A stretch of 64,000 bases of DNA from an uncultured Thermoactinomycetaceae bacterium (lineage in GTDB: Bacteria > Bacillota > Bacilli > Thermoactinomycetales > CALJVA01): contig CALJVA010000015.1 of assembly GCA_937975135.1 (NCBI GenBank), forward strand, positions 1,064-65,063. The letters are read 5' to 3'. A program made the position numbers and the translations under genes. Position 1 is the first letter of the stretch. Each line of letters begins with the position of its first letter. The notes below the pieces were generated by a model. It was not told the DNA's origin and made no database searches. It saw only the letters and a program-made list of their open reading frames with translations. Positions 2-54,526 of the stretch are shown one piece after another.

Positions 2-64
2 AAACTAGTACAGCGGGAAGAAGCAATGCGGCGTAAGGTGCTGGAATCAGCCCATCTGGAGTGA
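2..64 (+). CDS. purE: 3' end of N5-CAIR mutase gene, truncated by window edge
   Basis: Frame is open from the window edge (KLVQREEAMRRKVLESAHLE*) with stop tga at 62-64, 44 nt before the purK start. Position matches the purE-purK order of Bacillus pur operons. The fragment is too short for motif support. Confidence 0.5.
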   Translation, partial: KLVQREEAMRRKVLESAHLE

Positions 65-107
65 TCAAAGCTTAGAACATAGTGATTTAGTCAAAGGGTG
101 ATTATGT

Positions 108-1268
108 TTGTCACAAGCGAAAAAAGCGGCCTCCAAGGATATCATCCTGCCCGGTAGTACGATTGGAATTTTGGGTGGAGGTCAGCTAGGTCGGATGATT
201 ATTCTAGAAGGGCGAAAAATGGGATATCGGTTCGTTGTTTTAGACCCCACCCCTAACTCTCCAGCAGGTCAGGTTGCGGACCAGCAGCTCATAGCTTCCT
301 ATAGTGATCTAAATGCAGGAGAGAAGTTGGCTGCCCTTTCTGATGTGATTCTCTATGAGTTTGAAAATGTGGACGCTGAAGTAGTGAGATACTTAGAAAG
401 CCAGACTTCTCTTCCCCAAGGTAGTTGGTTGCTTAAGGTCTCACAAAATCGTATTCGGGAAAAAAATGCGCTCGTTGAAATTGGAGTTCCAGTTGCTCCA
501 TACCGAGAAGTAAGGAGTATAGCCCAATTGCATCAGGCAGTCGAAACTCTTGGTTATCCCTGTATATTGAAAACAGCAATGGGCGGTTACGATGGTCGAG
601 GTCAACGAATCATTCGTAACAAACGAGAAATTGAAGCAGTGGGGAAAGAGTTTTTGCTCCATGATGAAGAGTATATCCTGGAATCTTATATTCCCTTTAC
701 CAAAGAATTGTCGGTGATTGTGGCCCGAAATGGTATGGGAGAGATCCGTAGCTTTCCAGTAGCGGAAAATATTCATCAACGCCATATCTTACATCATTCG
801 ATTATACCGGCCCGCATTGAGCCAACCGTGGCAAAGGAAGCAGAAAAAATCGCCCGAAAAATTGCAGAGGAGTGGGAAATTGTTGGGCTAGTGGCAGTAG
901 AAATGTTTTTATTACCGAGCGGGGAATTAATGGTGAATGAGATTGCTCCACGGCCTCATAATTCAGGTCACTATACTTATGATGCCTGTAAAACTTCTCA
1001 GTTTGAACAGATGATTCGGGCTGTATGCGGACTTCCACTGGGATCTACCGAGCTACTTGCGGAGGCGCTCATGGTGAATGTGCTGGGAGAGCATTTGCCC
1101 ATGTTGATCGAAAAATTACCTGATCTAACTTCTGATATCAAACTTCATCTCTATGGAAAAGAGAAAGCAAAAGAAGGACGGAAGATGGGTCATATCACCC
1201 TGTTAACGGAATGTGTCGATGAGGCGTTGATCCAGATTGAACAAATGAATATTTGGAGTCTTAAATGA
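108..1268 (+). CDS. purK: N5-carboxyaminoimidazole ribonucleotide synthase (ATP-grasp)
   Basis: 386-aa ORF with TTG start. Motifs ILGGGQLGRM, GYPCILKT and EIAPRPHNSGH are typical of PurK. It is the first full gene of the pur operon. Confidence 0.93.
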   Translation: MSQAKKAASKDIILPGSTIGILGGGQLGRMIILEGRKMGYRFVVLDPTPNSPAGQVADQQLIASYSDLNAGEKLAALSDVILYEFENVDAEVVRYLESQTSLPQGSWLLKVSQNRIREKNALVEIGVPVAPYREVRSIAQLHQAVETLGYPCILKTAMGGYDGRGQRIIRNKREIEAVGKEFLLHDEEYILESYIPFTKELSVIVARNGMGEIRSFPVAENIHQRHILHHSIIPARIEPTVAKEAEKIARKIAEEWEIVGLVAVEMFLLPSGELMVNEIAPRPHNSGHYTYDACKTSQFEQMIRAVCGLPLGSTELLAEALMVNVLGEHLPMLIEKLPDLTSDIKLHLYGKEKAKEGRKMGHITLLTECVDEALIQIEQMNIWSLK

Positions 1269-1384
1269 AAAAGTTCATCTGAATTGGTGTCTTAAAGCAT
1301 TTTTTGAGAAGGATCAATGAATGGATAATGGTCTGAAAGGGATATGAGGATAGCCCTTAAGAGCCATAAAAGGAGATGTTTTTG

Positions 1385-2680
1385 ATGATCGAACGTTACA
1401 CCCGGCCTGAAATGGGAGCAATTTGGACAGATGAGAATCGTTATCAAGCTTGGTTAAAAGTAGAGATTGCCGCCTGTGAAGCTTGGGCAGAGTTAGGAGT
1501 TATACCCCAAGAAGATGTGGAGAAAATTAAGAAAAACGCACGGATTGATATCAAACGGATTCTTGAAATTGAAGAAGAGACACGCCATGATGTTGTCGCA
1601 TTTACACGGCAGATTGCAGAAACCCTTGGGTCTGAATCAAAATGGGTTCACTACGGCCTTACCTCTACTGATGTTGTGGATACTGCCCTCTCTTATCTCC
1701 TGAAGCAAGCCAATGAAATCCTTTTACGTGATGTGGATCGTTTTATCGAGGTATTGCGAGAGAAGGCCTTGGCATACAAAGAGACTGTCATGATAGGGCG
1801 TACCCATGGCGTTCACGCTGAGCCGACGACGTTTGGCTTGAAAATGGCCCTTTGGTATGAAGAAATGAAACGTCACCGCGAACGATTGAAACAAGCAGCA
1901 GAAGGGGTTCGAGTCGGTAAAATATCCGGTGCAGTAGGTACCTATGCAAATATCGATCCCTTTGTTGAAGAATATGTTTGTAAGCAATTAGGGTTAAAGC
2001 CTGCACCCATTTCTACACAGACCCTTCAACGGGATCGGCATGCTGAGTATATTGCGACACTTGCCCTTATTGCTACTTCCTTGGAGAAGTTTGCAACCGA
2101 GGTACGTGCTTTACAAAAGAGTGAGACACGTGAAGTGGAAGAATCTTTCCGCAAAGGGCAAAAAGGATCTTCTGCTATGCCCCATAAACGGAACCCTATC
2201 GGATCAGAAAATATCAGTGGTCTTGCTCGGGTTGTACGCGGTTATATGGTATCCGCTTATGAAAATGTCCCCCTTTGGCATGAACGGGATATTTCCCATT
2301 CATCGGTAGAGCGTGTGATTATTCCTGATGCGACAATCCTACTCAATTATATGCTGAACCGCTTTGCTTCCATTATTGAAAATCTTACTGTTTTTCCCGA
2401 AAATATGCTTCGCAATATGGAGCGTACCTATGGTCTGATCTATTCCCAGCGTGTTCTCCTCACCCTGATCAATAAAGGGTTCCCACGGGAAACAGCTTAT
2501 GATCGTGTGCAGCAGTTAGCCATGCAAGCCTGGGAAGAGCAACGTTCCTTCCGTACTTTGGTAGAAAAAGATGAAATGATTACTGAAGTACTTTCCGCCG
2601 AGGAAATCGATGACTGCTTTGATCCCCGTTATCACTTGAAACATGTTGACACGATCTTTAAACGACTGGGACTTCTTTAA
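1385..2680 (+). CDS. purB: adenylosuccinate lyase
   Basis: N-terminus [30 protein letters not shown] and the signature [11 protein letters not shown] are present. The ORF track starts at 1376; the ATG at 1385 gives the canonical N-terminus. Confidence 0.95.
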
Positions 2681-2886
2681 GATATGCCGCTGTGAAATGG
2701 CGACGCGATTTTCCAGAAGTAAGCTGGGATTTGTAAGAAGCGTAGTAATTGTACTTATGTTTACGGAGGTGAGGGCTACGAATTCCTTTAATTTTTAAGG
2801 AGCAAAGAGGGTAGCTGAGATCACCTCCAGGTTATCCAAGGACTATTCTCCGTGGTGCTTTGTAAAACAATCTAAGGAGGAGAAAC

Positions 2887-3606
2887 ATGGAGCGGGGAGA
2901 GTTGCTATATGAAGGAAAGGCGAAGAAGATCTATCATACAAAGGATCCAAACTTTGTCTGGGTAGTCTATAAAGATGATGCGACAGCCTTTAATGGGGAG
3001 AAAAAAGGTCAAATTACGCAAAAAGGGGAGCTAAACAATCGAATAAGCAGCTTTCTCTTTCATTACTTAGCAAAGCGAGGGGTTTCCAATCACTGGGTTA
3101 AGATGCTTTCCCCAACGGAACAGCTGGTTCGACGCGTACAGATCATTTTGTTAGAAGTGGTGGTTCGTTATCGAGCTGCCGGCAGCTTAGTAAAACGATT
3201 GGGAATGAAGGAAGGAGAAGTGTTATCCACTCCGATCGTTGAGTTTTATTACAAAAATGATGCGTTAGGAGATCCGCTTATCAATCAAGATCATATCAAC
3301 GCTTTAAATCTTGCTACACCGGAACAGGTGAAGAATATGCGGGATACCAGCCTAATTGTAGGAAAACACCTTCAGGAGCTGTTTCAGCAACACCATATTA
3401 TTTTGGCCGACTTTAAACTAGAGTTTGGGATGGATCGACAAGGGAGTTTACTTTTGGCAGACGAGATTTCTCCCGATACCTGCCGACTCTGGGATCAAAG
3501 AACCGGTGAAAAGCTGGATAAAGATCGTTTTCGACAAGATTTAGGAAATGTATCTGAGGCTTATCGTGAAATTTGGCATCGTTTGGAGGGGAAAGCAGAT
3601 GTTTAA
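2887..3606 (+). CDS. purC: SAICAR synthetase
   Basis: 239 aa with LYEGKAKKIY, LEVVVRYRAAGS and LADEISPDTCRLWD motifs. SD aaggagg lies upstream. Confidence 0.95.
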   Translation: MERGELLYEGKAKKIYHTKDPNFVWVVYKDDATAFNGEKKGQITQKGELNNRISSFLFHYLAKRGVSNHWVKMLSPTEQLVRRVQIILLEVVVRYRAAGSLVKRLGMKEGEVLSTPIVEFYYKNDALGDPLINQDHINALNLATPEQVKNMRDTSLIVGKHLQELFQQHHIILADFKLEFGMDRQGSLLLADEISPDTCRLWDQRTGEKLDKDRFRQDLGNVSEAYREIWHRLEGKADV

Positions 3607-3850
3607 AGGAATTGTGGAGATCGCTCTAAAGCCTGGTGTTGTCGATCCGCCAGGTGTAGCAATCAAAGAATCTTTACATTCTTTAGGATTTAATGAAGTA
3701 GAGTCTGTCCGGATGGGTAAGCGAGTTGAAGTTCACCTTAATGCTGCAAATCGTGAGGAAGCAGAGAAGCAACTCCAAAAAATGTGTGAACAGTTATTGG
3801 TCAATCCTGTGATCGAGGAGTACACCTTTTATGTAGAGGAGGAAGCTTAA
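3599..3850 (+). CDS. purS: FGAM synthetase subunit PurS
   Basis: MFKGIVEIALKPGVVDPPGVAIKESLHSLGF... is an 83-aa PurS-like sequence. ATG 3599 overlaps the purC stop; the ORF-track start at 3548 is an upstream extension inside purC. Confidence 0.9.
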   Translation: MFKGIVEIALKPGVVDPPGVAIKESLHSLGFNEVESVRMGKRVEVHLNAANREEAEKQLQKMCEQLLVNPVIEEYTFYVEEEA

Positions 3851-4524
3851 TGCGTTTTGCCGTCCTGATGTTTCCTGGTTCCAGTGGGATGGAATGTGTC
3901 CGTATAATCGAAAAATTCCTGAAGCAACCGGTTAGCAAGGTATGGCATCGGGAACGGGATTTATCCAATTATGATGTCATTATTTTACCAGGAGGCTTCT
4001 CCTATGGTGATTATCTTCGACCAGGAGCATTGGCCGCTTTATCTCCAGTGATTGATGGGGTTCGTGTGGCTGCAGAGCACGGAAAGTTGATCCTAGGGAT
4101 TGGTAATGGATTTCAGATTCTCTTGGAAGCAGGTTTGTTGCCAGGGACGGTGTTACCCAATAATCATCAACAATTCCGTTGTGGGATTCAAAGGGTACGT
4201 GTGGAACAGAGGGAGACGCCTTTTACGAGAGAGTACCAAGTGGGCGAGGTGATTTCCCTTCCCTTTGCCCATGGACATGGAAACTATTATTGTGATCCAG
4301 AGACCCTTCAGTCATTGCAGAAATCTAAGCAGATTATTTTTCGTTATTACGGTGAGAATCCCAATGGTTCTCTTGATGGGATTGCAGGCTTGGTAAATAA
4401 AACAGGTAATGTACTGGGGACCATGCTACGACCAGAACGGGCGGTCGCTCTAGGAGCTGGTTTTGGCGGTGAACGAATATTTACTTCGATGCTTCGTTTC
4501 GGGAGGGAGAAGGGTGTTATCTGA
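3850..4524 (+). CDS. purQ: FGAM synthetase glutaminase-subunit homologue with degenerate catalytic triad
   Basis: 224 aa, collinear with PurQ ([27 protein letters not shown]). The start overlaps the purS stop (TAATG). The nucleophile motif reads GIGNGFQ and the His motif reads MLRPER (see findings). Confidence 0.9.
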
Positions 4525-6772
4525 ACAAAAGCAACCGTTTTTAGAGCCAACGCCTGAGGAGATTTGCGAGAAGAGGCTGTACCAAAAGATGGGGATGACT
4601 ACTGAAGAGTATGAAAAAGTAGTCCAACACCTCGGACGACTCCCTAATTGGACGGAGACAGGGATTTATAGTGTGATGTGGTCAGAACATTGTAGCTATA
4701 AAAACTCCAAAGCACTGCTGCGTCTTTTTCCGACCGAAGGTCCTCAGGTATTGCAGGGACCTGGTGAGGGAGCTGGTGCGATCGATATTGGAGATGGACA
4801 GGCGGTGGTGTTCAAGATTGAAAGCCATAACCACCCTTCTGCTGTGGAACCTTTTCAAGGAGCAGCCACAGGAGTGGGTGGAATCATGCGGGATGTGTTT
4901 TCCATGGGTGCCCGTCCCATTGCACTGCTCAATTCTCTCCGCTTTGGTTCCTTGGATAAGGAAGATGTCCGCCATCTATTAAAACAAGCTGTGGCGGGGA
5001 TTGGTTATTACGGGAATGTGATTGGGGTTCCTACAGTGGGTGGGGAAGTTGTGTTCGATCCGGTTTATAACGAAACTCCATTGGTAAACGCGATGTGTGT
5101 CGGACTTCTCTCACATGGGGATCTACAAAAAGGGATTGCCAAAGGCAAAGGAAATCGGGTAATTTACATCGGCGCAAGTACAGGTCGTGATGGAATTCAT
5201 GGTGCAACCTTTGCTTCAGAAGAGCTGAGTGAAGACTCTGAAGAGATGGTACCTGCGGTACAAGCCGGAGATCCATTTATGGGCAAACGGTTAATGGAAG
5301 CTTGTCTGGAATTAGTCCAAGCACAGATTTTAGTGGGAATTCAGGATATGGGTGCTGCAGGTTTGACCAGTTCCAGTGTGGAGATGGCAGCCAAAGGAGA
5401 AAGTGGTATCTTACTGAATCTAGATGCGGTTCCCCAGCGAGATCCTGAAATGACACCTTATGAAATGATGTTGTCAGAATCTCAAGAGCGGATGTTAGTG
5501 ATTGTGGAGGAAAAGAATGTAGCAGAGGTTCATCGTATTTGCCAGAAGTGGGAGGTTCAATCCGTTGATATTGGGGAAGTGACTGATGATGGCACACTTA
5601 CCCTAATACACAAGAACAAGAAAGTAACTTCTCTTCCTATAAAGACTCTTGTTAATGCTCCTATGGTGTACCGTGAAGCGAATGAGCCTGCCTACTATCA
5701 ATCCTTTGCAACGGTTGATCCTGTTCAAGAATTAGCAGGAATCGAAGTGGAAAAGGCATTTTACCAGGTACTTTCATCCCCTAACGTAGCAAGTAAACGC
5801 TGGGTGTATCAACAGTACGATTATATGGCTCAGGGAGCTACTGTTGTATCTCCGGGATCTGATGCAGGTGTGATCGCGATTGAGGGGACAAAAAAATTCC
5901 TCGCTGTAACCACTGATGGCAATGGTCGATATGTCTATCTAGATCCAAAGGTGGGAGGAGCCATTGCTGTAGCAGAAGCGGCCCGCAACTTGGTTTGCAC
6001 AGGAGCTAAACCCCTCGCGATTACCGATGGGCTCAACTTTGGTAGTCCGGAAAAACCGGAGATTTATTGGCAAATGACGGGTGCCATTCAAGGGATGCAG
6101 GCAGCTTGCCTCACATTGGAGACCCCGGTTACAGGGGGGAATGTAAGTCTGTACAATGAAACCGCTGGCCAAGCGGTTTATCCAACACCGATCGTTGGAA
6201 TGGTTGGTTTGATTGATGGGCCTGAGAAAATCACCACTCATTCTTTTAAAAATGAGGGCGATATAATTCTCCTACTTGGAAATACGCTGGCTGAACTGGG
6301 CGGCAGTGAATTGCAACAATGTATTACCGGCCAGATTTCTGGACGGCCACCCCAGATTGATCTAGAGCGTGAAAAAAATGTGCAAAAAGTTGTTTTGGAG
6401 GCGATTTACTCCGGTTGGGTTCAATCGGCCCATGATTTATCTGAAGGAGGATTGGCCGTTGCCTTAGCGGAGTGCTGTATCAGTGGGAATCGAGGAGCGG
6501 AACTTGCTATAAAAACGGATCTTAGTCCCCTTACCTTCTTGTTTAGTGAAAGCCAGTCCCGTGTTTTGCTCAGTGTTAAAGTAGATCATCTTGAAAAAGT
6601 CGCCCAACTGGCTGCAGCGTACCAAGTACCTTTAACTCAACTGGGTCGTGTAGGGAAATCGCAAGTGTCTGTGACTGTGAATGGAGAGCTTTTAATCGAT
6701 GCTCCCCTTTGTAAGCTGCAGCAAACGTGGGAAGGGGCGATACCATGGGCGATGAGTTCCACTTCGAGTTAA
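4514..6772 (+). CDS. purL: FGAM synthetase subunit PurL (small type)
   Basis: [20 protein letters not shown] and GGNVSLYNE motifs are present. A likely GTG start at 4514 overlaps the purQ end; the ORF track begins at 4463. Confidence 0.95.
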
Positions 6773-8175
6773 AAGAAGAGTGCGGTGTTTTTGGTGTAGT
6801 CGGACACAAAGAAGCAGCACAGCTTGCTTATTATGGACTTCATGCACTGCAGCATCGAGGTCAGGAGAGTGCCGGGATCGTTACCACTACGGGGGAGAAG
6901 TTTCATGTTCATCGCGATCTCGGACTGGTAACCGAAGTCTTCAATAGTGATCGTTTAATGCAGTTAAAGGGAGAGATGGCAATCGGCCATGTCCGTTATA
7001 CGAAAAGTGGGGAGAGTGGCCTTCTTAATGTACAACCCTTGGTATTTAACCGGGGTGCTGGTCCCTTGGCGATTGCTACCAATGGCAATTTAGTTAATGG
7101 GTCTGAAATTAGAAAAGAGTTAGAAGAAACGGGCTCCATTTTCCAAACAACTTCCAACACGGAAGTGATCGCACATCTGATTGTCCGATCCAGGAAAAGT
7201 ACCATCGAAGAAGCGATAAAAGAGGCATTACGTCAATTGGTAGGAGCTTATGCTCTTCTGATATTAACCAAAGATCAGCTCTTTGTCGCCCAAGACCCTC
7301 ATGGATTACGTCCGTTATCCGTTGGACGCTTGGAGCAGTCCTATGTATTTTCATCAGAGACCTGTGCTCTGGATGCGATTGGTGCAGAATATTGGCGTGA
7401 AATTGAGCCAGGAGAGTTAGTAGTTATCAATCACAACGGAGATTTTCGAAGCGAACCCTTTACCCAATCCGTTCGCCGTGCAGTATGTTCTTTTGAGTAC
7501 ATTTACTTTGCCCGCCCGGACAGTAATATTGCTGGGGCAAATGTTCATACCGTCCGTAAAAAGTTGGGGCGTCTGCTGGCGAAAGAGGCACCGGTTGCAG
7601 CTGATGTAGTAACTGGTGTGCCTGATTCCAGTATCTCAGCGGCCATTGGTTATGCTGAAGCGACGGGTACCCCTTATGAACTGGCGTTAATTAAAAATCG
7701 ATATATTGGCAGAACCTTTATCAAGCCCAGTCCAGAGTTACGTGAACAAGGAGTAAAGATGAAGCTTAGTGCTGTACGCAAAGTGGTCGAAGGGAAGCGA
7801 GTCGTCATGGTAGACGATTCGTTAGTTCGGGGGACTACTTCCCGGCGATTGGTAAGTCTTTTGCGCGCAGCGGGGGCTAAAGAAGTACATGTTCGGATTA
7901 GCTCACCTCCAGTAAAAAATCCCTGTTTCTATGGGATTGACACTGCGGATCGTAAGCATTTGATTGCTGCAAATAAATCGGTAGAAGAGATTCGTAAAGA
8001 GATTGGAGCGGACAGTTTGTACTTTTTAAGCGAGCAAGGACTGTTGACGGCAATTGGCCGTCCAGTAGAGATGAACCATAGTGGTCAATGTTTGGCTTGT
8101 TTTAACGGGGATTATCCGACACCGATTGAAACTGCGATGGGAGCTCCAAAGGTGGAGAAAATAGATTGGTCTTGA
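6745..8175 (+). CDS. purF: amidophosphoribosyltransferase
   Basis: [21 protein letters not shown] is a short propeptide followed by the N-terminal nucleophile Cys, as in B. subtilis PurF. Fe-S Cys ligands ([26 protein letters not shown]) and the PRPP loop [12 protein letters not shown] are present. Confidence 0.95.
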
Positions 8176-8378
8176 AACATTTCCTAGAGGATTTATGTGC
8201 TTAGAGAAGACCCTTCGATTTTAGGGATCAATAGAAAAGATTGAAAGTAGGGACCAAGGGAGTGTTAGGGATTGGACCTTGTATTGAAATGACAATGGAG
8301 TCGCCTAAACACTCCCGGGTCTAGTGAACAGCAGATTGCACCGAAATGACGATTGCTAACAATGATGGAGGAAGAAGC

Positions 8379-9413
8379 ATGAGTGAAGCATACCGGGCAG
8401 CCGGAGTAGATATCGATAAGGGGAATGAAGCTGTCGAGCGGATGAAACAACACGTGGCACGAACAAATCGTCCTGAAGTTATTGGTGGTTTAGGTGGGTT
8501 CGGCGGTCTATTTGCTCTAGGTTCCTACAGGGATCCAGTTTTAGTGGCAGCAACAGATGGGGTAGGAACCAAATTGAAAGTAGCATTTGCGATGAACCGC
8601 CACGATACCATTGGGATTGATTGTGTGGCCATGTGTGTGAACGACCTTGTGGTTCAAGGAGCAGAACCGCTCTTCTTTCTCGATTACCTTGCGACAGGAA
8701 AATTAGAGCCTGAGCAGGTAGAAGCCGTTGTTAAAGGAGTAGCGGAAGGCTGTTTGGAAGCGGGATGTGCTTTAATCGGTGGGGAGACTGCGGAGATGCC
8801 TGGAATGTTCGCCCCAGATGAGTATGATATTGCGGGCTTCTCTGTGGGGGTCGTTGAAAGAGAAGAATTGATTACAGGAGAGCGGATCCAGCCCGGTGAT
8901 GTGATTATCGGATTGGCTTCCAGTGGCTTGCATAGCAATGGGTACTCTTTGGCACGTCGTGTTTTGTTGGAAGGCCGATGGGAGCGCATCAATGAACGTG
9001 CTGCGGGAGATGATCGGACATTGGGGGAAGTGCTGCTTACCCCGACTAGAATCTATGTTTCAATCTTCCGTTCCATGATGAAAAAGTTTGATATTAAAGG
9101 TGGGGCACATATTACGGGAGGTGGTTTATTGGAAAACATTCCTCGTATCCTCCCAAAGGGTTGTCATGCCAAGCTGGAGCGAAATGCTTGGGAGATCCCT
9201 CCTATCTTTAGACAGATTGAAGAGGAAGGCAACCTTTCAACGGGTGACCTTTACCGAACCTTTAATATGGGTATTGGTATGGTCCTGATTCTTCCATTGG
9301 AACAGGCAGATACAGCTCTTACTTTCGCAGAATCGGTTGGTGAAAAGGCATGGCGAATTGGGGAAATTGTCTCAGGGGAACAGGGCTGTAGTTGGATTGG
9401 CGGGGAGGAATAA
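8379..9413 (+). CDS. purM: AIR synthetase
   Basis: [19 protein letters not shown] and [10 protein letters not shown] motifs are present. SD ggagga lies 6 nt before ATG 8379; the ORF track starts at 8346. Confidence 0.95.
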
Positions 9414-9416
9414 CCG

Positions 9417-10031
9417 ATGGGAATCGCAGTATTTGCTTCTGGGAATGGAAGCAATTTTGAAGCATTGGTTCGTGATTCGCGGCGGAGAAACTGGCCTCTT
9501 CCGATTCGTTTGCTCGTAACCGATAAAGAAAACTGTGGAGCTTTGGAGCGGGCCAAGCGATTAGACGTACCCGCCTTCTCCTTCGATCCCAAGCAATATG
9601 CATCTAAAGAAGAGTATGAGCGAGAGATTCTTACTTTGCTTCAGGAGCAAGAAATTCAATGGATTGCCCTTGCAGGTTATATGCGGATTATTGGTCCTAC
9701 ACTTTTGCAGGCTTATCCTTGGCGAATTGTAAATGTTCATCCTTCCTTGCTTCCTGCCTTTCCAGGAAAGGATGCCGTGGGTCAAGCCCTTAAATATGGT
9801 GTCAAATGGACAGGGGCAACGATTCATTTTGTGGACGAGGGGATTGATACCGGTCCGATTATAGCCCAAAAGCCGGTCTTGGTTCATGAAGGTGATGATC
9901 ATACAACGCTAACCAAACGGATTCAGTTTCTGGAACATCATCTTTACCCGGCGACCTTACGACAATTGATCATGGGCAAGATTCCGCTTCCTTCTACCAC
10001 ATTTCTGCAAAAGAGGGGGAAAGAGATGTGA
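9417..10031 (+). CDS. purN: GAR formyltransferase
   Basis: 204 aa with [22 protein letters not shown] and [11 protein letters not shown] motifs. Confidence 0.93.
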
Positions 10032-11572
10032 ATAAACGACGTGCGTTAATCAGTGTTTTTGATAAAACCGGAATAGTTGACTTTGCCCGAGGCCTTGTAA
10101 AACATGGGGTGGAGATAATTTCCACCGGAGGAACATTCACAGTATTAGAAGAAGCTGGAATACCTGTGATAAGCGTATCCCAAGTGACTGGCTTTCCAGA
10201 AATATTGGACGGTCGGGTAAAAACATTACATCCCATCATTCATGGCGGATTACTGGCCAAACGTGATCAAGAGAGCCATCAAAAGCAACTGTTGGAGCAC
10301 GGAATTCTTCCAATTGATATTTTGGTTGTTAATCTGTATCCCTTTGAACAAACCATCGCAAAACCGGATGTAACCTATGATGAAGCAATTGAGAATATCG
10401 ACATTGGTGGTTCCGCAATGTTGCGAGCAGCAGCAAAAAATCATGCTCATGTAACAGTGATTGTAGATCCCGCCGATTATGACGTGGTCCTGGAGCGGAT
10501 CAGCTGCCAAGAGGAGAACGATTTTTCTTTTCGCCAGCGGATGGCTGCCAAAGCCTTTCGCCATACCGCTGCTTATGACGCCTTAATTGCCAATTATCTA
10601 AGTAAAGAGTGTGAAGAGAAGTTTCCTGAGCGACTTACCCTTACCTATGAAAAAGCACAAGAGCTTCGCTACGGAGAAAACCCACATCAAGAGGCCGCCT
10701 TTTATCGTGCTCCTTTAGTTAAAACTGGACAAATTGCGACTGCGCCCCAATTGCATGGTAAGGAGCTTTCCTATAATAATATCGCCGATGCCAATGCTGC
10801 TTTAGAGATTGTCTCGGAATTTTCCGAACCAACAGTAGTAGCAGTGAAACATATGAATCCCTGTGGTGTGGGGAGTGGAGAGAATATTTTTGCTGCTTAC
10901 CAAAAGGCGTATGAGGCAGATCCCACTTCTATTTTTGGAGGGATTGTGGCTGCCAACCGGCCCATTGATCGACAAACGGCAGAGCATATGGGGAAACTCT
11001 TTTTAGAAATCGTCCTCGCTCCCAGCTTTGAGCCGGAAGCCCTCACCTTACTAAAAAAGAAGAAAAACCTTCGCCTGTTAGAATTGGGTGATCCACAGGT
11101 TTGGGGGAAAGGAATCGAGTTGGAAATGAAGTCGGTTGGAGATGCGCTCCTGATCCAGCAAGTAGACCGCCGGTCTCTGGAGCGAAGCCAGTGTCAGGTT
11201 GTTACCAAGCGCTCTCCCTCCGAGGAGGAATGGGAGATGCTCTTGTTTGCCCGTAAAGTGGTGAAGCATGTAAAATCCAATGCGATTGTTTTGGCAAAGC
11301 ATGGACAAACCGTGGGAATTGGGGCGGGACAAACCAATCGAGTGGGGGCTGCCCGGATCGCGATCCGAGAGGCTGGCTCTAGAGCAAAGGGAGCTGTTCT
11401 AGGTTCTGATGCCTTCTTTCCCATGAAGGATACCGTAGAAGTAGCAGCAGAAGCGGGCATTACGGCAATTATCCAGCCGGGGGGTTCAATTCGCGATGAG
11501 GAATCAATTGCGGAAGCGGACCGTCATGGGATCGCCATGGTTTTTACCCATCTTCGCAACTTTAAACATTAA
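10028..11572 (+). CDS. purH: bifunctional AICAR formyltransferase / IMP cyclohydrolase
   Basis: 514 aa. [24 protein letters not shown] and [11 protein letters not shown] motifs are present. The GTG start overlaps the purN stop. Confidence 0.95.
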
Positions 11573-11618
11573 ATCCTACCATTCGATTGATTAAGTGTAT
11601 CAATAGGAGGGAGCCTAT

Positions 11619-12893
11619 TTGCGAATTTTGGTAGTTGGTAGAGGTGGTCGAGAACATGCTTTGATTTGGAAGTTAAAGCAGAGTCCGCGAGTAAGCCAGA
11701 TTTATGCAGCACCAGGAAATGCCGGGATTTCAAAGTTGGCAACCTGTGTTGATATTGAAGAAAAAGATATCGCAAGCTTGGTTCAATTTGCAAAAAAGAA
11801 GCAGATTGATTTGACTGTAGTAGGGCCTGAAGAACCCCTTTTAATGGGACTCGTAGACCAATTTCAAGAACATGATCTTCCTGTTTATGGGCCGACACAA
11901 GCTGCAGCCCGGATTGAAGGGAGTAAACGATTTGCAAAAGCATTAATGGAGAAATATCAAATCCCGACTGCTCGCTACCAAGCCTTTGACCAAGCTGATG
12001 AGGCGATCGCCTATGTAAGAAAGAAAGGCGCTCCGATTGTTGTTAAAGCGGATGGGTTGGCGGCGGGAAAGGGCGTTATCCTCGCTGAAACCTTGGAACA
12101 GGCAGAAGCAGCGATTAATCGGTGTATGAAGGAGCGCGCTTTTGGGGATGCCGGAAGAGAAGTAGTGATTGAGGAATACTTGTACGGTCAGGAGATTTCC
12201 TTGATGGCTTTTGTCGATGGCAAAGTTGTTCGTCCAATGGTGATTGCCCAAGATCATAAGCCTGTTTTTGATGGGGATGAAGGACCCAATACGGGAGGAA
12301 TGGGTGCCTATTCTCCCGTACCACAAATCGAAGAGGAGATGATTCAGCGGGGCATTGAAGAAATCTTAATACCAATGGCAAATGCTTTAGTTGAGGAAGG
12401 GATTCATTATCAAGGAGTACTATATGCCGGATTAATGATTACTTCCGAGGGGCCGAAGGTGATCGAATTTAATGCCCGATTTGGTGATCCCGAAACACAG
12501 GTTGTTCTCCCACGATTAAAGAGTGATTTGCTTGATATTCTACTGGCAACACTAGAGGGAGAGCTATCTAAGGTGGAGATTCATTGGAAGCATGAAGCAG
12601 CAGTTTGTGTTGTGATGGCTTCTGAGGGTTATCCTAGGGCTTATCAGACAGGCTTTCCCATTACGGGTTTACCAGAAGCTACAGAATCTGTCATTCCCTT
12701 TCATGCAGGAACTCGTCACGAAGGGGAAACAGTCGTTACCAATGGTGGACGCGTGTTGGGGATTACTGGATTGGGAAAAGATTTGATAGAAGCACGGGCA
12801 ATAACCTATGAAGCAATCGATAAAATTATGTTTTCTGGTGCTCATTACCGCAAGGATATTGCCTCCAAGGCATTGGATCATGTAAAAGTATAA
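11619..12893 (+). CDS. purD: phosphoribosylamine-glycine ligase
   Basis: MRILVVGRGGREHALIWKL, KADGLAAGKGV and EFNARFGDPETQ motifs are present. TTG start. Confidence 0.95.
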   Translation: MRILVVGRGGREHALIWKLKQSPRVSQIYAAPGNAGISKLATCVDIEEKDIASLVQFAKKKQIDLTVVGPEEPLLMGLVDQFQEHDLPVYGPTQAAARIEGSKRFAKALMEKYQIPTARYQAFDQADEAIAYVRKKGAPIVVKADGLAAGKGVILAETLEQAEAAINRCMKERAFGDAGREVVIEEYLYGQEISLMAFVDGKVVRPMVIAQDHKPVFDGDEGPNTGGMGAYSPVPQIEEEMIQRGIEEILIPMANALVEEGIHYQGVLYAGLMITSEGPKVIEFNARFGDPETQVVLPRLKSDLLDILLATLEGELSKVEIHWKHEAAVCVVMASEGYPRAYQTGFPITGLPEATESVIPFHAGTRHEGETVVTNGGRVLGITGLGKDLIEARAITYEAIDKIMFSGAHYRKDIASKALDHVKV

Positions 12894-23148: not shown

Positions 23149-25002
23149 CCTCCGCTACCATTGGCAAGATTTGATGGCCTATTTCTTAAGTTGCACATGG
23201 GCAGTTACTCTGGTTCATCTTTTTATGCAGGTGATTGATCACCCTGAGCTTGCCTCGGATGTTCACCGAGGTTTTTTTTTCGTGGCCCTATTTCTACTGG
23301 TTTTCTTTATGGCGGGCTTTATTTGGTTGTCTCATCAGTATTTTTATCGGAAACGGGAGGAAGAGTGGGAGCTTTTATCCTGGTTAGGGATGGAGTCTGC
23401 TCATTGGAAGCGTCTGTTGTTATGGGAAAGTGGGTTACTTGCCGGAATATCGATACTAGGCGGCCTGGGTGGGGGCTTTCTACTGGCTCCTCTTTTTTAT
23501 CTCGCAGTATCCACTGTCCTTTTTCTGCCCGATCCTCTGGGCATGCACTTTTCTTGGAGAGGAATTCTATGGACTGTAGCTTTTTTTGCACTTTTATATT
23601 TCATCGTAACTTGGCGTATCTGGAATCAATTGGGGAATGAACAGCTTCGATCAACAAAGTTGCCTCGACTACAGCTTTCTGAGAAGTGGGGTATAGTCTT
23701 TTCATTGCTCTCATTGGGAGGGGTGTGGTGGGGAACGGATACCGCAACCTGGACAGCATGGATTCCCCGATTTCCTTTTATTGTTTTTCTAGGACTTTTC
23801 GGGGGATTTGGTTTACTACGTTACGGTGGAGCATGGTTGATGAGCTGGGCCCGAAATCAGCCATTAATTCTGAAAATCCCCTCCCTTTGGCTACTAATTA
23901 CTTGGTTGCGTCCACGTTGGTCTCAAGATGCTCGATTATTAATTTTGATCAGTGGGATGATGCAATTGCAGTAGGAATGGGAAGCTTCTGCTTTGTCTTC
24001 TGGAATCAGGCAGACCACTTAGCAGTAGAGCAAAACCCATGGACCATTCAAATTGTTGGGGTAAAAGGAAATGAAATTGCGAAGGAAGTGGAACGAGTTT
24101 TAGCTGAGGAGGGGTTGCCGATCGAGCAAAAAATGTCCCTACCCATGTTAAAGGCGAATAAAAGGGAAACTTCTTATATTCTGGTTTCATCCAGTGACTT
24201 TAACGAGCTGCTTAAAAGTAGGGGATATCCACCTTTTCAAATTGATTCAGGGGAGGCTATCGATGTTTTTCCTTTTCAAAAGGGAGCAAAAGAGGAAAAG
24301 CATCGAGCATCTACAACCTTGAAGGTAGAGAGGTGGACGTTGCAAGTGGGAGCTGGGTCTTGGAAGGTGGATGTGGTGCAACGGTCTAATCTCCGATTGT
24401 TAAACCAGCACCCTTTGACAGAACATGTCTTGGTGTTAGCGGTATCAGATTTCCAAAAGTTATGGGAACAATCTTCTGAAGAGCAATTCTGGATTTATGG
24501 TTGGAGGTCTTCTCGATGGCGTGAGAGCTCCGATGTTCTTGAACGTTTGGAAGATACGCTTCAGGATAAAAATAATCTGGCAAAAACACCGCTTAGAGAG
24601 AGCAGATGGTTACGTCAAGGATTTGCTCCACTAATGTTTTTCAGTTTATTCCTGGGGATCCTCTTTTTCTTAGCCTCTGTGACCCTGATTACCTTTCGTC
24701 TTCGCCAGCAAGTGATCCGCGAACCGGAGAGATGGCAACGATTAGGGGAGTGGGGGATGACGGCGAAAAAACGAATGGAAATGATTCACTGGGAAGTAAG
24801 AGTGATTTTTGCCCTTCCTTGGTTACTCACCTTGGGTGCAGCGGTTTTGGTAAATCGCTTTTTGGATGTACTGGTTCCTGGTGGGACTGCTACTACTGTA
24901 GCGACTGTTTATGTGGTTCAAGCTGGGATGTGGTGCCTCGTGTATCGCTTTATGTGGGAGAAGTTTCGCTGGTGGTTGGAAGAGCGAGTAGAGGAAATAT
25001 AA
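23120..25002 (+). pseudogene. BceB-like (FtsX-domain, 10-TM) ABC permease interrupted by a frameshift near 23962
   Basis: Two overlapping ORFs lie in different frames (to 23974, and 23686-25002). Together they give about 625 aa with BceB architecture: 4 TM + FtsX region, ~200-aa extracytoplasmic domain, C-terminal TM bundle. The join is ...ARLLILISGMM | AIAVGMGSFCFVF. Confidence 0.7.
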
Positions 25003-40556: not shown

Positions 40557-40763
40557 AAAAGCTTTTTCAGGGGAAATATGGCCATATCACACACTTTCTT
40601 TTGTACCTCCTTATCATAAAATGATTGGGAGGCTCTTAAATTACTGGTAAATATTTCTGACAACTTAGATTAATTAATCAAAAGAGGAAGGGTTTTTTTA
40701 TTTCATAACGAAATAAAGAGTAGATGTTTATTAATTATAAAAAAGAAAAGGAGAGTGAGAAAT

Positions 40764-42428
40764 GTGAAAAGGACTATAAGACTATTTTGGGTATTTGTTC
40801 TTTCAATCTCGTTGCTGCTTCCACTTGGAGTTGCGCAAGGGGCAGAAAAAATCCCAAATCCCGTCCCTGCAGGGGTTCAAATCATGGGAAGTAAAGGTGG
40901 GGGAAAAAGTTATACTCCAGGCACTTGGTATCTGGGGAGCACACCACCTAATGTGGATTACAGCAAGCCACCCATTGTTTTTGTTCAAGGGAAAAATGGG
41001 GTAGCACAAAGTTGGTGGGAAGATACCGTATATCATGGACGTAATGATATGTATGACTATGCTTATAACAATGGGTACCGGACAGCCTTTGTTCAGCTCT
41101 ATGATGCTGCCGGCAATGGTTCTCATGATATGTGGGATAATGGACAGCTACTCGCACAACTGCTGCGGGAGATTAGCGAGCACTTTGGCGAAAAAGTGAA
41201 TGTTGTATCCCATAGTAAAGGTGGGATCGACACACAGGCTGCCCTGATTCACTACAATGCATGGCCCTATGTAGGGAAAGTAATCACACTGGGTACGCCA
41301 CACCATGGATCTCATTTGGCAAACCTGGCTTATAGTTCTTGGGCAGGATGGCTAGCAGATCTACTTGGACAGCAGGACGATGGTACGTATGTACTTCAGA
41401 CAGGGTATATGGAATATTTCCGTTCCATTACGGATAATCACAGCAATAGAAGTAAAAATATGTATTACACTGCTGCGGGTACGAGCTGGGGTCCTTTCCC
41501 TTCTGCACTGTGGACAGGAGGAGCTTACCTTGCTTTTCAAGGGCAAAATGATGGTTTGGTAAATGTTTGGAGCACACAGTTGCCCTATGGACGTCATTTG
41601 TTTACCGCAAATTATGATCATGACAATATCCGCATGGGAAGAACTGCATTTCCACGGATTGAATCTGAACTTCGCAATATAGGAACAACTATGAGTCAAG
41701 CACAACAAAAAGAAGCATTTGTGACGAAAGCAGTGGAGCCTAATGCTGAGGGAGAACAGATTGTACGTGGAGGCCCCTTACAAGCTAATAAGATGGTAGA
41801 AGAAACAATGGTGATTGAATCGGGAAGACAAGAAGCGATTTTCCAAGTACTCACCAAGAATAAGAATGTAGATACAGTACTTATTTCCCCCAGTGGAAAA
41901 ATGTATACTAGCCGTAGTGCTGAATATTTGACAGCTGAAGGACATGACGTCTTTAAGGGAGCGAGTGTGAAAGCATTTCGTATTAGCCGTCCTGAGGCAG
42001 GAACCTGGAAAGTTCGTCTGACAAGTAAAGCAAAGGATGCTTACCTCCTGATGACAACTTTACCTGGTGCACCAACCATCGAAGTTGATCTTGAGAAACC
42101 AGCCCGAGGAGAAGTTCCAGTTCATGTAAAAATGAAGAACCCTGATAAGTGGGAGCTTAAGAACTTTGATGTTAAAATGAAAGTAGTGCCAACTACACCC
42201 GGAAAAGACAGAAAAATGAAAAAAGAAATTAAAGAGATGAGATTAAAGCAGATTCAGGATAAAAAATCGAAGGAGTTTACAGGCAAAATTTCCGGAAAAA
42301 TGAATCCTGGTGTTTATAACGTAACTTTAGAGATCCAGGGAGAAACCAAAGATGGCGAGCCTTACCAGCGTACAGTAATTCGTTCCTTCTTTGTCCCTGG
42401 GGATAAAAAAGAAGATATTGGTGGATAA
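40764..42428 (+). CDS. secreted alpha/beta-hydrolase (lipase/esterase-like) with C-terminal beta-rich domain
   Basis: Signal peptide ...LLLPLGVAQGAEK and nucleophile elbow VVSHSKGGID are present, followed by about 250 aa of C-terminal extension. GTG 40764 has better SD spacing than 40755. Confidence 0.7.
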   Translation: MKRTIRLFWVFVLSISLLLPLGVAQGAEKIPNPVPAGVQIMGSKGGGKSYTPGTWYLGSTPPNVDYSKPPIVFVQGKNGVAQSWWEDTVYHGRNDMYDYAYNNGYRTAFVQLYDAAGNGSHDMWDNGQLLAQLLREISEHFGEKVNVVSHSKGGIDTQAALIHYNAWPYVGKVITLGTPHHGSHLANLAYSSWAGWLADLLGQQDDGTYVLQTGYMEYFRSITDNHSNRSKNMYYTAAGTSWGPFPSALWTGGAYLAFQGQNDGLVNVWSTQLPYGRHLFTANYDHDNIRMGRTAFPRIESELRNIGTTMSQAQQKEAFVTKAVEPNAEGEQIVRGGPLQANKMVEETMVIESGRQEAIFQVLTKNKNVDTVLISPSGKMYTSRSAEYLTAEGHDVFKGASVKAFRISRPEAGTWKVRLTSKAKDAYLLMTTLPGAPTIEVDLEKPARGEVPVHVKMKNPDKWELKNFDVKMKVVPTTPGKDRKMKKEIKEMRLKQIQDKKSKEFTGKISGKMNPGVYNVTLEIQGETKDGEPYQRTVIRSFFVPGDKKEDIGG

Positions 42429-49000: not shown

Positions 49001-49086
49001 ATGAAAACTGGAAGGTTGTTCTATTGATGTTAGATCATCAATAAACTACTCCATAGGACATGTTGATACAAGAAAGGGAGTTAAGG

Positions 49087-54182: not shown

Positions 54183-54199
54183 ACAAGTGAAAATATCAT

Positions 54200-54370
54200 A
54201 TGTCGCAAAAAGGTCCCCGCCTCGGGCGTGGGTTAAAAGGGAAGTCCGGTGTAAATCCGGCGCGGTCCCGCCACTGTAATTGGGGAGCAACATCGCATGT
54301 ATGCCACTATCTAAACGATGGGAAGGCGCGATGAAGCGAGGATCCATAAGCCAGGAGACCTGCCTTTTTG
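54200..54370 (+). promoter_or_regulatory. cobalamin riboswitch aptamer
   Basis: Conserved core ggttaaaagggaagtccggtgtaaatccggcgcggtcccgccactgt (B12 box gccactg) plus downstream gggaagg...gccaggagacctgcc. It lies upstream of a BtuF-type binding protein. Confidence 0.9.
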
Positions 54371-54450
54371 CTGAATATTGCTGTTCACCTTCGAGGCAAA
54401 GGATGAACGCAGATACGTAGTTTTTTTTGCTGCGTAAAAGCGCGATTTTC

Positions 54451-54481
54451 ACCCTGTGCCTTGTATGGTACAGGGTTTTTT
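54451..54481 (+). terminator. riboswitch expression-platform terminator
   Basis: Stem accctgt / acagggt followed by ttttt, lying between the aptamer and the first gene. Confidence 0.7.
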
Positions 54482-54526
54482 ACATCTGCCCGCCCGAAGG
54501 ATGACAAGGGGAAAGGGGAAACAAAA

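Follow-up and report, generated by a model that had tools for sequence, protein, structure and literature searches.

A PurQ subunit without the nucleophile and general base of the glutaminase site: a putative structural pseudo-glutaminase in a bacterial purine operon

The pur operon of an uncultured Thermoactinomycetaceae bacterium (assembly GCA_937975135.1, contig CALJVA010000015.1) encodes a PurQ orthologue in which both the cysteine nucleophile and the histidine general base of the glutaminase site have been replaced. FGAM synthase is a textbook ammonia-channelling amidotransferase; judged from its residues, this PurQ cannot act as a thiol glutaminase. The gene, purQ, is nevertheless under purifying selection and is therefore not a pseudogene. 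Comparison with homologues indicates a widespread and recurrent pattern of which the window is a single instance, and our literature searches found no description of Cys-less PurQ. The explanation that we favour, with moderate confidence, is that PurQ persists as a structural pseudo-glutaminase and that FGAM synthesis would run on free ammonia. The window is the whole stretch of 64,000 nucleotides that was analysed (positions 1,064 to 65,063 of the contig); all coordinates given below refer to its forward strand.

Operon context

The window carries the genes purK-purB-purC-purS-purQ-purL-purF-purM-purN-purH-purD at 108–12893, and ten of ten neighbours of purQ exceed the curated NCBIfam equivalog cut-offs. 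At a locus of the same species (L081), an rRNA operon, purE and a purine riboswitch (90 bits) that precedes purE are found upstream, which puts purE and the riboswitch immediately outside the window on its 5' side. Both junctions of purQ (3850–4524) are tight: the TAA stop codon of purS (83 aa, 3599–3850) shares one base with the purQ ATG (TAATG), and purL, which encodes a small PurL of 752 aa (4514–6772), begins with a GTG and has its first 11 bases in common with the end of purQ, a start also used by the L081 gene call. Read from these junctions, purQ is translationally coupled to purS and purL. The same single purS-purL slot is filled by the orthologous Cys-less purQ in all lineages examined. 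As for the wider relationships of the locus, PurB is 80–83% identical to that of loci L087 (Kroppenstedtia pulmonis), L093 and L096 (Thermoactinomycetaceae), and together with the named neighbours of PurQ this identity places the locus near that family.

A first-pass annotation, made from the sequence without database searches, had described the neighbours of purQ as retaining their catalytic signatures, and profile searches bear this out. PurS is intact (NF004630, 100.8 bits against a cut-off of 75). PurL scores 1023 bits against NF002290 (cut-off 648) and contains SEHCSYK and ESHNHPS; the motifs for catalysis and for the end gate, [22 protein letters not shown] and YQQYD, are intact, and PurL retains the equivalents of H296, T310 and D657 as well as the gate residue D436. 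PurF has its N-terminal cysteine, Cys13, in the motif CGVFG, which is where the purF model starts.

Catalytic sites and predicted fold

The open reading frame at 3850–4524 translates into the 224-aa product that had been described, and this product matches the PurQ equivalog models above their cut-offs over residues 1–216 (NF002957, 261 bits against 212; TIGR01737, 238.6 against 177.8). The nucleophile, C86 in T. maritima and C1135 in the E. coli and Salmonella enzymes, is replaced by Gly85 (codon GGT, 4102–4104), and the triad histidine, H1260, by Arg194 (codon CGA, 4429–4431). By contrast, Glu196 and Arg197 (4435–4440), equivalent to the triad glutamate E1262 and the mouth-gate arginine R1263, are kept. 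Near the N-terminus the canonical PGSNCDxD reads PGSSGME (3874–3894): Ser12 occupies the position of N1051, the equivalent of S1052 is deleted, and Gly13 stands in place of the aspartate. Further changes at canonically conserved residues are R63A, F64L, R103P, L107Q, E143H and P193L.

Both catalytic replacements and the degenerate N-terminal motif had been proposed from a manual alignment, and they stand: the catalytic columns agree across three independent alignments. Pairing with T. maritima PurQ (3d54_D), by phmmer and by profile alignment, sets GIGNGFQ against GICNGFQ, MLRPERA against MPHPERA and PGSS-GME against PGSNCD. When E. coli PurL is aligned to the PurQ profile, C1135 pairs with Gly85, H1260 with Arg194 and E1262 with Glu196. 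As aligned, then, the Cys-His-Glu triad is incomplete, and the protein is a pseudoenzyme (here a pseudo-glutaminase) in the sense of an enzyme homologue without essential catalytic residues.

An AlphaFold2 model (pLDDT 87.3) predicts the alpha/beta fold of class I amidotransferases and can be superposed on the solved structure of PurQ; the top Foldseek match in the PDB is 3d54_D (TM 0.86/0.90, rmsd 1.9 Å). In the model Gly85 sits where strand 80–84 meets helix 86–93, which is the nucleophile elbow without its cysteine. Three other readings of the site were considered and set aside. A substitute nucleophile was rejected, there being neither Cys nor Ser near the elbow, and selenocysteine at residue 85 was rejected on the GGT codon. 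A role as glutamine sensor was judged unlikely for the window clade, in which residues conserved only where Cys is present have changed as well.

Sequence integrity and selection

It seems extremely improbable that the replacements are an artefact of sequencing or assembly, or a symptom of a pur operon that is being lost. The GGT and CGA codons occur in six independent assemblies (one from ENA, five from SRA runs) that differ from the window by 3–11 SNPs per 9.5 kb; these differences mark the assemblies as independent strains, and the identical codons in all of them exclude the sequencing error that the first-pass annotation had already thought unlikely. There are no frameshifts, all eleven genes are intact and the riboswitch is present. 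No support for error or decay was found; a noisy, frameshifted long-read assembly from the same project (L095) belongs to another organism.

Between the window and L090, a relative of 92% identity that likewise has neither Cys nor His, purQ has a dN/dS of 0.10 at a dS of 0.41. The operon neighbours range from 0.05 to 0.14, meaning that the constraint on purQ is comparable, and these operon-wide values likewise speak against decay. The same C-to-G and H-to-R changes are found in two relatives, L090 and L088. Within this clade the glycine codon varies synonymously (GGT in the window, GGC in L090, GGA in L088), and Arg at the triad His position recurs in P0092 and L144 as well as in L090 and L088. 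A relative-rate test with a canonical outgroup (P0012) gave 21 versus 5, whereas with K. pulmonis, itself Cys-less, as outgroup it gave 13 versus 10 and no asymmetry.

Recurrence of Cys-less PurQ

The Cys has been lost independently at least seven times among 133 close homologues, each loss being nested within canonical relatives. Neither the Cys nor the His column varies among the 108 canonical close homologues, and the complete Cys-His-Glu triad is found in 79 of 80 GTDB species loci, which are distant PurQs matched by the universal GGFSYGDY pattern, include no close relatives and form a roughly unbiased sample. Both observations place the change far from chance variation. The share of Cys-less sequences is about 1% of the GTDB species loci sampled and 12–18% of the sequences closest to the window; among the 150 best 50%-cluster representatives, Cys is absent from 27. 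In metagenomes, 45 of 80 loci that hold the pattern GIGNGFQI are purQ genes, most of them with purS and purL on their two sides, and these add at least 45 Gly-bearing purQ genes to the losses among close homologues. Cultured bearers of a Cys-less PurQ among the close relatives are Kroppenstedtia pulmonis (CP048104) and Amphibacillus sp. MSJ-3; congeners with a canonical PurQ are a Kroppenstedtia species and A. marinus.

The 39 Cys-less representatives retain E196 in 100% and R197 in 90% of cases, together with the GG of the oxyanion strand, N104 and NPNGS. The PGSNCD motif, with Asn in 98% and Asp in 100% of the 108 canonical homologues, is degenerate in five of eight Cys-less lineages and in most of the metagenome variants; N12 and D13 of this motif are among the sites that decay jointly with the nucleophile Cys, N12 corresponding to N1051 of large PurL and the intervening Cys to S1052. 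The glutaminase Cys of PurF is retained in every lineage with a Cys-less PurQ that was examined.

Co-variation in PurL

In large PurL, a mouth gate to the ammonia channel is formed by N1051, S1052, R1263 and D657, with N1051 anchoring the oxyanion strand (PMC7124931). Channel-wall residues have also been described there, and F467 and V470 belong to an allosteric switch that couples the synthetase to the glutaminase (PMC7124931). When mapped onto small PurL by profile alignment at low identity, two of the sites that co-vary with the PurQ Cys adjoin these elements. Residue 169, Val in the YGN-V-IGVP of the window (5018–5020) and Cys with canonical PurQ partners, is equivalent to E379, next to the channel-wall residue N378. 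Cys169 is found in 34 of 38 partners of canonical PurQ versus one of 20 partners of Cys-less PurQ (Fisher p = 2e-10, the sequences not being fully independent). Arg169 is confined to partners of Cys-less PurQ, where it occurs in about eight independent lineages; the window clade has Val or Met. It is important to point out that Cys at this site is not universal, as the canonical enzyme of T. maritima and PDB 3viu carry Ser or Ala there.

The other site is the end of the C-loop, Val246–Ala251 (5249–5266; [11 protein letters not shown], canonically KRPxVQVGDPF), equivalent to F467–R472 of large PurL. The change V251A is found in 13 of 19 Cys-less partners versus one of 38 canonical ones, and Arg246 is lost in about half of the Cys-less partners. 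The statistics for the PurL sites treat clusters of 75–80% identity as independent, which overstates their significance. On this comparison, only Arg169 and V251A are specific to Cys-less partners among the PurL changes, and the window has Val169 rather than Arg. Two sister pairs, L093 versus L096 and L049 versus L073, differ in exactly the PurL features linked to the PurQ Cys. A Kroppenstedtia relative whose PurQ still has the Cys already shows the changes in PurL and at the gate, and uncoupling thus preceded the loss of the nucleophile in that lineage. Overall, the co-variation favours free ammonia as the probable nitrogen source over another glutaminase docking on PurL, and a structural over a channel role for PurQ.

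Comparison with known systems

By its profile score and length, its predicted fold and its place in the purS-purL slot, the window protein is an orthologue of canonical PurQ of B. subtilis and T. maritima (3D54 chain D), with which it shares the oxyanion-strand motif [19 protein letters not shown] as well as the E-R of HPER. It differs in having neither the Cys, the His nor an intact PGSNCD. The glutaminase domain of large PurL (Salmonella and E. coli; human PFAS) is homologous, and its framework of mouth gate, channel wall and C-loop maps onto PurQ and small PurL; large PurL is, however, one polypeptide in which the hydrolysis of glutamine is tightly coupled, whereas the window system has lost the equivalents of N1051, S1052, C1135 and H1260 and is altered in PurL at the channel-wall neighbour and the C-loop.

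Mammalian carbamoyl-phosphate synthetase I has a class I glutaminase-like domain that has lost its catalytic Cys and serves as a structural or allosteric part, and its synthetase uses free ammonia. In outline this is the arrangement proposed here, a dead glutaminase domain being retained alongside the use of free ammonia. It nonetheless concerns another enzyme, a fused domain and a eukaryotic lineage, and it reflects a single ancient event as opposed to many recent independent ones.

The herpesvirus vGAT proteins (ORF75, BNRF1) are FGAM synthase homologues in which the catalytic triad is missing and which count as pseudoenzymes (PMC7605207). They are tegument proteins that act on host immunity outside purine metabolism, in contrast to the window PurQ, whose gene lies next to that of an intact PurL in a regulated pur operon. 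Archaea also have purine amidotransferases that miss glutaminase residues: for the Cys-less PurF' of Crenarchaeota ammonia dependence has been proposed, and PurQ of Thaumarchaeota has a His-to-Asn change (PMC3261824). In the archaea surveyed, however, the Cys and Glu of PurQ are fully conserved, and PurF', an additional paralogue, has another fold, of the Ntn type (PMC3261824).

The source of nitrogen for FGAM synthesis

PurQ of the window descends from a normal PurQ and has lost the Cys (now Gly85), the His (now Arg194), the N-terminal residues of the channel-mouth gate and other conserved residues. In the explanation that we favour, the protein would still be made and still be needed, its most likely part being that of a third, structural component in a PurS2-PurL-PurQ FGAM synthase. 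The nitrogen of FGAM would come from free ammonia taken up by PurL and not from glutamine hydrolysed in PurQ. PurL has altered in step at sites beside the mouth gate, the channel wall and the C-loop of the allosteric switch. The loss of catalytic residues, the strong purifying selection, the intact operon, the recurrence, the PurL co-variation and, for one lineage, the sequence of events are observed; the PurS2-PurL-PurQ assembly, the free-ammonia donor and the lack of a substitute glutaminase are inferences. The first-pass annotation had already suggested that PurQ should be unable to hydrolyse glutamine, that FGAM synthesis would depend on ammonia or on another glutaminase and that PurQ was kept as a structural or channel subunit; dN/dS, translational coupling, the predicted fold and the PurL motifs support this proposal.

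Biochemical precedent bears on the favoured explanation from both sides. The small PurL of B. subtilis alone reportedly has a weak NH3-dependent activity, and formation of the PurLSQ complex in B. subtilis and T. maritima is said to depend on glutamine and MgADP. The NH3-dependent activity of small PurL is a small fraction of the rate of the complex, and purQ mutants of B. subtilis require purines; dependence on ammonia would thus need high ammonia or compensating changes in PurL. In PurF, mutation of the catalytic Cys abolishes the use of glutamine and keeps that of ammonia (PMC3261824). Against the free-ammonia reading stands the PurF Cys, whose retention indicates that glutamine has not been abandoned generally as nitrogen donor.

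The ammonia might alternatively be supplied by another glutaminase elsewhere in the genome, whether a further purQ of canonical type, a large purL or an enzyme of other descent, the operon copy being a redundant or regulatory paralogue. The search for a second purQ covered the 64-kb window, where none was found, and the archaeal Memar_1841 sets a precedent for an extra, decayed purQ (PMC3261824). We nevertheless consider this source unlikely. The Cys-less gene holds the only purS-purL slot in all lineages examined, a dN/dS of 0.10 is unexpected for a redundant copy, and PurL has lost conservation precisely where large PurL couples to its glutaminase (the neighbours of mouth gate and channel wall, and the C-loop), which would be unexpected if a glutaminase docked there; in addition, and as a weak argument, no second K. 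pulmonis purQ appears among the 120 closest homologues. The empty glutamine pocket of PurQ could also serve as an entry port that admits external ammonia to the old channel towards PurL. The smaller residues at the pocket and mouth gate (C85G, N12S, the deleted S1052 equivalent, and F50A or F50S in other lineages) and the retained gate residues R197 of PurQ and D436 of PurL would suit such a port, yet the PurL site by N378 is enlarged (Arg in about eight lineages, Val or Met in the window clade), resembling a channel that has been filled or abandoned, and we regard an open port as very unlikely.

A further suggestion shares its mechanism with the free-ammonia explanation and differs in the selective driver alone: a thiol-free PurQ would render FGAM synthase insensitive to natural glutamine analogues (azaserine, DON and their relatives), and ammonia-rich habitats would make the loss of the thiol affordable. 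These compounds act by alkylation of the catalytic Cys, and FGAM synthase, a classical target, is highly sensitive to them. DON causes FGAR to accumulate more than 80-fold through inhibition of FGAM synthase (PMC9668306). The replacements recur, converge and are specific, unlike random decay: most lineages have Gly for Cys, N12 is replaced by Ser and F50 by Ala or Ser, and in PurL Arg takes the place of Cys169 and Ala that of V251. The loss was followed by a rate acceleration specific to PurQ and then by strong constraint, and Cys was lost by PurQ alone and not by PurF. Among named bacteria the nearest relatives belong to the Thermoactinomycetaceae, for example Planifilum, and appear repeatedly in work on thermophilic, ammonia-releasing compost. 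Gly and Ser are, on the other hand, the sole small residues reached from a Cys codon by one base change, and structural tolerance at the elbow could suffice; we regard adaptive loss as improbable. Tentatively, and with rather less confidence than we place in a structural pseudo-glutaminase fed by free ammonia, a broader scenario can be drawn, in which a three-protein, glutamine-dependent FGAM synthase would have been converted repeatedly and convergently into an ammonia-dependent enzyme. Changes of PurL next to the channel wall and in the C-loop, and of PurQ at the mouth gate, would have come first, followed by loss of the thiol and later of the His; the dead PurQ would be an obligatory scaffold, and the enzyme would be immune to glutamine-analogue antimetabolites and favoured in ammonia-rich habitats, e.g. 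thermophilic compost.

Perspectives

Annotation pipelines attach the label "PurQ / glutaminase" to proteins that, by their residues, would be unable to be glutaminases. The recurrent losses provide many independent natural experiments on those residues of PurQ and PurL that exist solely for the coupling of glutaminase and synthetase, and the co-varying sites adjoin the mouth gate, channel wall and allosteric loop known from mutagenesis and simulation of large PurL. The cultured K. pulmonis and Amphibacillus sp. MSJ-3 are ready test cases. If the favoured explanation is true, de novo purine synthesis in these organisms would need free ammonia, with consequences for their ecology, for how they are cultivated and for how sensitive they are to antimetabolites.

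Identity and genomic setting of the window PurQ

The ORF at 3850-4524 (+) encodes the 224-aa product described in the first-pass annotation, which lies over NCBIfam equivalog cut-offs along its whole length (NF002957, 261 bits against a cut-off of 212; TIGR01737, 238.6 bits against 177.8) and is also matched by Pfam GATase_5. The loss of catalytic motifs proposed there is borne out: a phmmer alignment to T. maritima PurQ in the PDB (3d54_D) sets GIGNGFQ opposite GICNGFQ and MLRPERA opposite MPHPERA, and a profile built from 16 homologues agrees with this register, placing a degenerate PGSS-GME opposite the N-terminal PGSNCD. The nucleophile position is occupied by Gly85 (GGT, 4102-4104, +) and that of the triad His by Arg194 (CGA, 4429-4431, +). 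In the profile alignment, Gly85, Arg194, Glu196 and Arg197 correspond to C1135, H1260, E1262 and R1263 of the large, single-chain E. coli PurL, whose residues agree with the literature names for Salmonella PurL at every position checked. An AlphaFold2 model (pLDDT 87; TM 0.86-0.90 on 3d54_D) predicts that Gly85 occupies the strand-helix junction that is the nucleophile site of class I amidotransferases. Descent makes the protein a PurQ; as it lacks the defining catalytic feature, it is classed here as a pseudo-glutaminase PurQ.

The surrounding pur operon is normal and regulated. The stop codon of purS shares a base with the start codon of purQ (TAATG, +), and purL begins with a GTG 11 bases inside purQ (+). 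The products of purK, B, C, S, L, F, M, N, H and D each exceed their NCBIfam equivalog cut-offs by a wide margin. As previously annotated, PurF retains its N-terminal nucleophile Cys. PurL keeps its signatures ([22 protein letters not shown] and YQQYD). On L081, a longer contig from this species, a purine riboswitch (90 bits) and purE precede purK, with a complete rRNA operon (37-5472; 16S, two tRNAs, 23S and 5S) directly upstream. Within the 64-kb window there is no second PurQ-like gene; the remaining genes are an ordinary Bacillales set, including pcrA-ligA, ABC transporters and a two-component system. Two adjacent class A penicillin-binding protein genes (transglycosylase and transpeptidase; 43653-46004 and 46349-48961) are probably a tandem duplication, and a cobalamin riboswitch (128.7 bits, 54194-54381) lies upstream of a periplasmic-binding protein gene (Peripla_BP_2, 54461-55483). 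At E <= 1e-5, no Pfam family is matched by three sizeable ORFs, 40755-42428, 23686-25002 and 49060-50130 (557, 438 and 356 aa).

Reproducibility and evolutionary constraint

The identical PurQ protein occurs on contigs in 65 blocks of a public assembly index. The GGT and CGA codons are reproduced in six assemblies from different samples, which lie 3-11 SNPs per 9.5 kb away from the window and thus represent separate strains of one species; sequencing error, already considered unlikely in the first-pass annotation, is thereby ruled out as the source of Gly85 and Arg194. The pseudogene reading is ruled out by a purQ dN/dS of 0.10 (dS = 0.41) between the window and a close relative (L090; 92% identical, also without Cys and His), a value within the range of ten other pur genes (0.05-0.14). 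Inside the window clade both codons drift synonymously, Gly85 among GGT, GGC and GGA and Arg194 between CGA and CGG.

Recurrent loss of the nucleophile

Cys loss is not confined to the window PurQ but recurs. The nucleophile Cys is replaced in 15 of the 120 closest homologues (12 Gly, 3 Ser), and a neighbour-joining tree separates at least seven Cys-less lineages, each nested inside relatives with the canonical Cys-His-Glu triad. The Cys-less lineages comprise the window clade (Gly and Arg), the Planifilum group (canonical sister 86% identical), K. pulmonis (which shares its 90% cluster with Cys-bearing sequences), a Ser lineage and the homologues P0092, P0034, P0028/P0046 and P0044/P0101; purQ lies between purS and purL in all those with DNA retrieved. 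Among metagenome contigs with DNA for GIGNGFQI, at least 45 PurQ carry Gly at the nucleophile (45 of 80 loci examined), and purS and purL flank most of those long enough to judge. Cys-less sequences make up 27 of the best 150 50%-identity cluster representatives (22 with Gly), a list ordered by resemblance to a query that itself lacks the Cys, which enriches it somewhat. A roughly unbiased sample of GTDB species retains Cys-His-Glu in 79 of 80, the sole exception being Amphibacillus sp. MSJ-3 (Gly); A. marinus is canonical. From a Cys codon, a single base change can reach no small residue other than Gly or Ser, and the observed codons fit such a change (TGC to GGC or AGC).

Several variants were encountered alongside these lineages. 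A Planifilum-type PurQ on a 1.3-kb JGI contig (P0004) reads MPPPER, with His replaced by Pro; its retrieved cluster mates (P0124, P0126-P0128) keep the His, and the Pro is an error or else a variant private to this sequence. A divergent PurQ-like group from metagenome contigs (L103, L110, L117, L122, L125, L131, L137, L138, L141, L152 and L175), with the motifs [19 protein letters not shown] and GIMAC(P/I)ERAV, has Gly for the nucleophile Cys and, wherever the locus covers the region, Cys for the triad His. It has no purS or purL alongside in the retrieved DNA (L137 adjoins metallophosphoesterase and FeoB genes), and its motifs could mean either that the nucleophile has moved or that this is a pseudo-glutaminase family of its own. 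In a K. sanguinis-like organism (L095; ERZ25039573 contig_82558), the pur operon is split into many short ORFs, which looks like noisy long-read assembly, not biology, and calls for caution with contigs of that project.

Changes elsewhere in PurQ

When 39 Cys-less representatives are compared with 64 canonical ones (both sets clustered at <75% identity), conservation is lost together with the Cys at N12 and D13 (PGSNCD), F50 (to Ala or Ser), E143, F64, R103 and R63, and also at L107, C111, P193, N172, Y52 and H194; the window PurQ is altered at nine of these positions. Still conserved in Cys-less PurQ are G48-G49, D54, R57, N104 and NPxGS, as well as E196 (100%) and R197 (90% of the 39). Relative-rate tests show that a PurQ-specific burst of substitutions follows Cys loss: 21 versus 5 in the Planifilum lineage (p = 0.002), 31 versus 9 for P0034 and 41 versus 11 for the window PurQ, with symmetric rates in the genes next to purQ in the Planifilum pair. 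In K. pulmonis, where the loss is very recent, the test detected no burst.

PGSNCD aligns with N1051/S1052 of large PurL, which together with R1263 and D657 form the ammonia-channel mouth gate of the Salmonella enzyme, N1051 additionally holding the oxyanion strand (PMC7124931). The N-terminal degeneracy already noted in the first-pass annotation is therefore the decay of the channel gate together with that of the catalytic site.

Co-variation with PurL

Every PurL was paired with the state of its adjacent PurQ, and sites were compared as plain counts that ignore phylogeny. Residue 169 is the Cys of YGNC(I/V)G(I/V)P in 34/38 PurL with canonical partners and 1/20 with Cys-less partners (Fisher p = 2e-10, for sequences that are not fully independent); Arg at this site is found beside 0/38 canonical partners and in about eight independent Cys-less lineages, and the window has Val. 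VQVGDPF becomes VQAGDPF (residue 251; Ala in the window) beside 1/38 canonical and 13/19 Cys-less partners, and the C-loop Arg of KRP (residue 246; Val in the window), kept with canonical partners, is lost in about half of the Cys-less cases. Residues 159, 435 and 439 shift too. Since canonical T. maritima PurL and PDB 3viu carry Ser or Ala at 169, only Arg169 and V251A are specific to Cys-less partners.

Mapped onto large PurL by alignment, not by structure, residues 159 and 169 correspond in an ungapped profile-alignment stretch to E. coli G369 and E379, adjoining P370 and N378, which with A374 and A384 are wall residues of the transient ammonia channel (PMC7124931). Residues 246 and 251, likewise in an ungapped stretch, correspond to F467 and R472, F467 being part of the C-loop allosteric switch together with V470 (PMC7124931); 435 and 439 flank the equivalent of D657.

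The coupling is directly visible in two sister pairs. Among Planifilum-type loci, Gly PurQ accompanies PurL with YGNR and VQAGDPF (L093), and Cys PurQ accompanies YGNC and VQVGDPF (L096). Amphibacillus sp. MSJ-3 combines Gly PurQ with YGNR, IQAGDPF and a missing C-loop Arg, and its sister A. marinus combines Cys PurQ with YGNC, VQVGDPF and KRS. A Kroppenstedtia relative (L220/L221, SRR28678135/6), whose PurL is 94% identical to that of K. pulmonis, still has the PurQ Cys but already carries YGNI and VQAGDPF in PurL and PGSSCD and GGFAYGN in PurQ, an intermediate state indicating that, in this lineage, the gate and PurL had changed before the nucleophile was lost. The purL of Amphibacillus sp. 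MSJ-3 (L049, 10644-12887), beside its Cys-less PurQ, reads ESHNSPS for the conserved ESHNHPS, the second His being replaced by Ser; this PurL may be changing or decaying.

Proposed function and selective driver

In a class I amidotransferase without a thiol, the glutamyl thioester cannot form. With the thiol, the His and several glutaminase-linked residues all gone, the established mechanism makes residual glutaminase activity of the window PurQ very unlikely. Because purQ is conserved and translated together with its neighbours purS and purL, and because the protein keeps its fold and many surface motifs, we read it as a putative structural subunit of the PurS2-PurL-PurQ complex (1:1:2 stoichiometry; PMC10912719), in which PurL would use free ammonia as nitrogen donor. 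PurQ is very probably a selected pseudo-glutaminase; the whole statement, including the structural role and free ammonia as donor, is somewhat favoured. PurL co-variation argues against the docking of another glutaminase on PurL, and slightly disfavours PurQ acting as an open ammonia port.

A structural PurQ would resemble mammalian CPS I in its way of working, where a dead glutaminase-like domain goes with free-ammonia use. Herpesvirus vGATs are FGAM-synthase homologues that also lack the triad but, unlike the window PurQ, have left metabolism (PMC7605207). Crenarchaeota harbour Cys-less PurF' paralogues proposed to be ammonia dependent, and Thaumarchaeota PurQ has Asn for His; the PurQ Cys is fully conserved across the archaea surveyed (PMC3261824). 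A literature search covering few subscription journals found no description of Cys-less PurQ in bacterial pur operons or of its co-variation with PurL.

One possible driver of Cys loss is protection from glutamine-analogue antimetabolites that alkylate the PurQ Cys, which fits PurF retaining its own Cys. A relaxed need for glutamine hydrolysis in ammonia-rich habitats is a plausible driver; the closest relatives with a name belong to the Thermoactinomycetaceae, among them Planifilum, a recurrent genus in studies of thermophilic compost.
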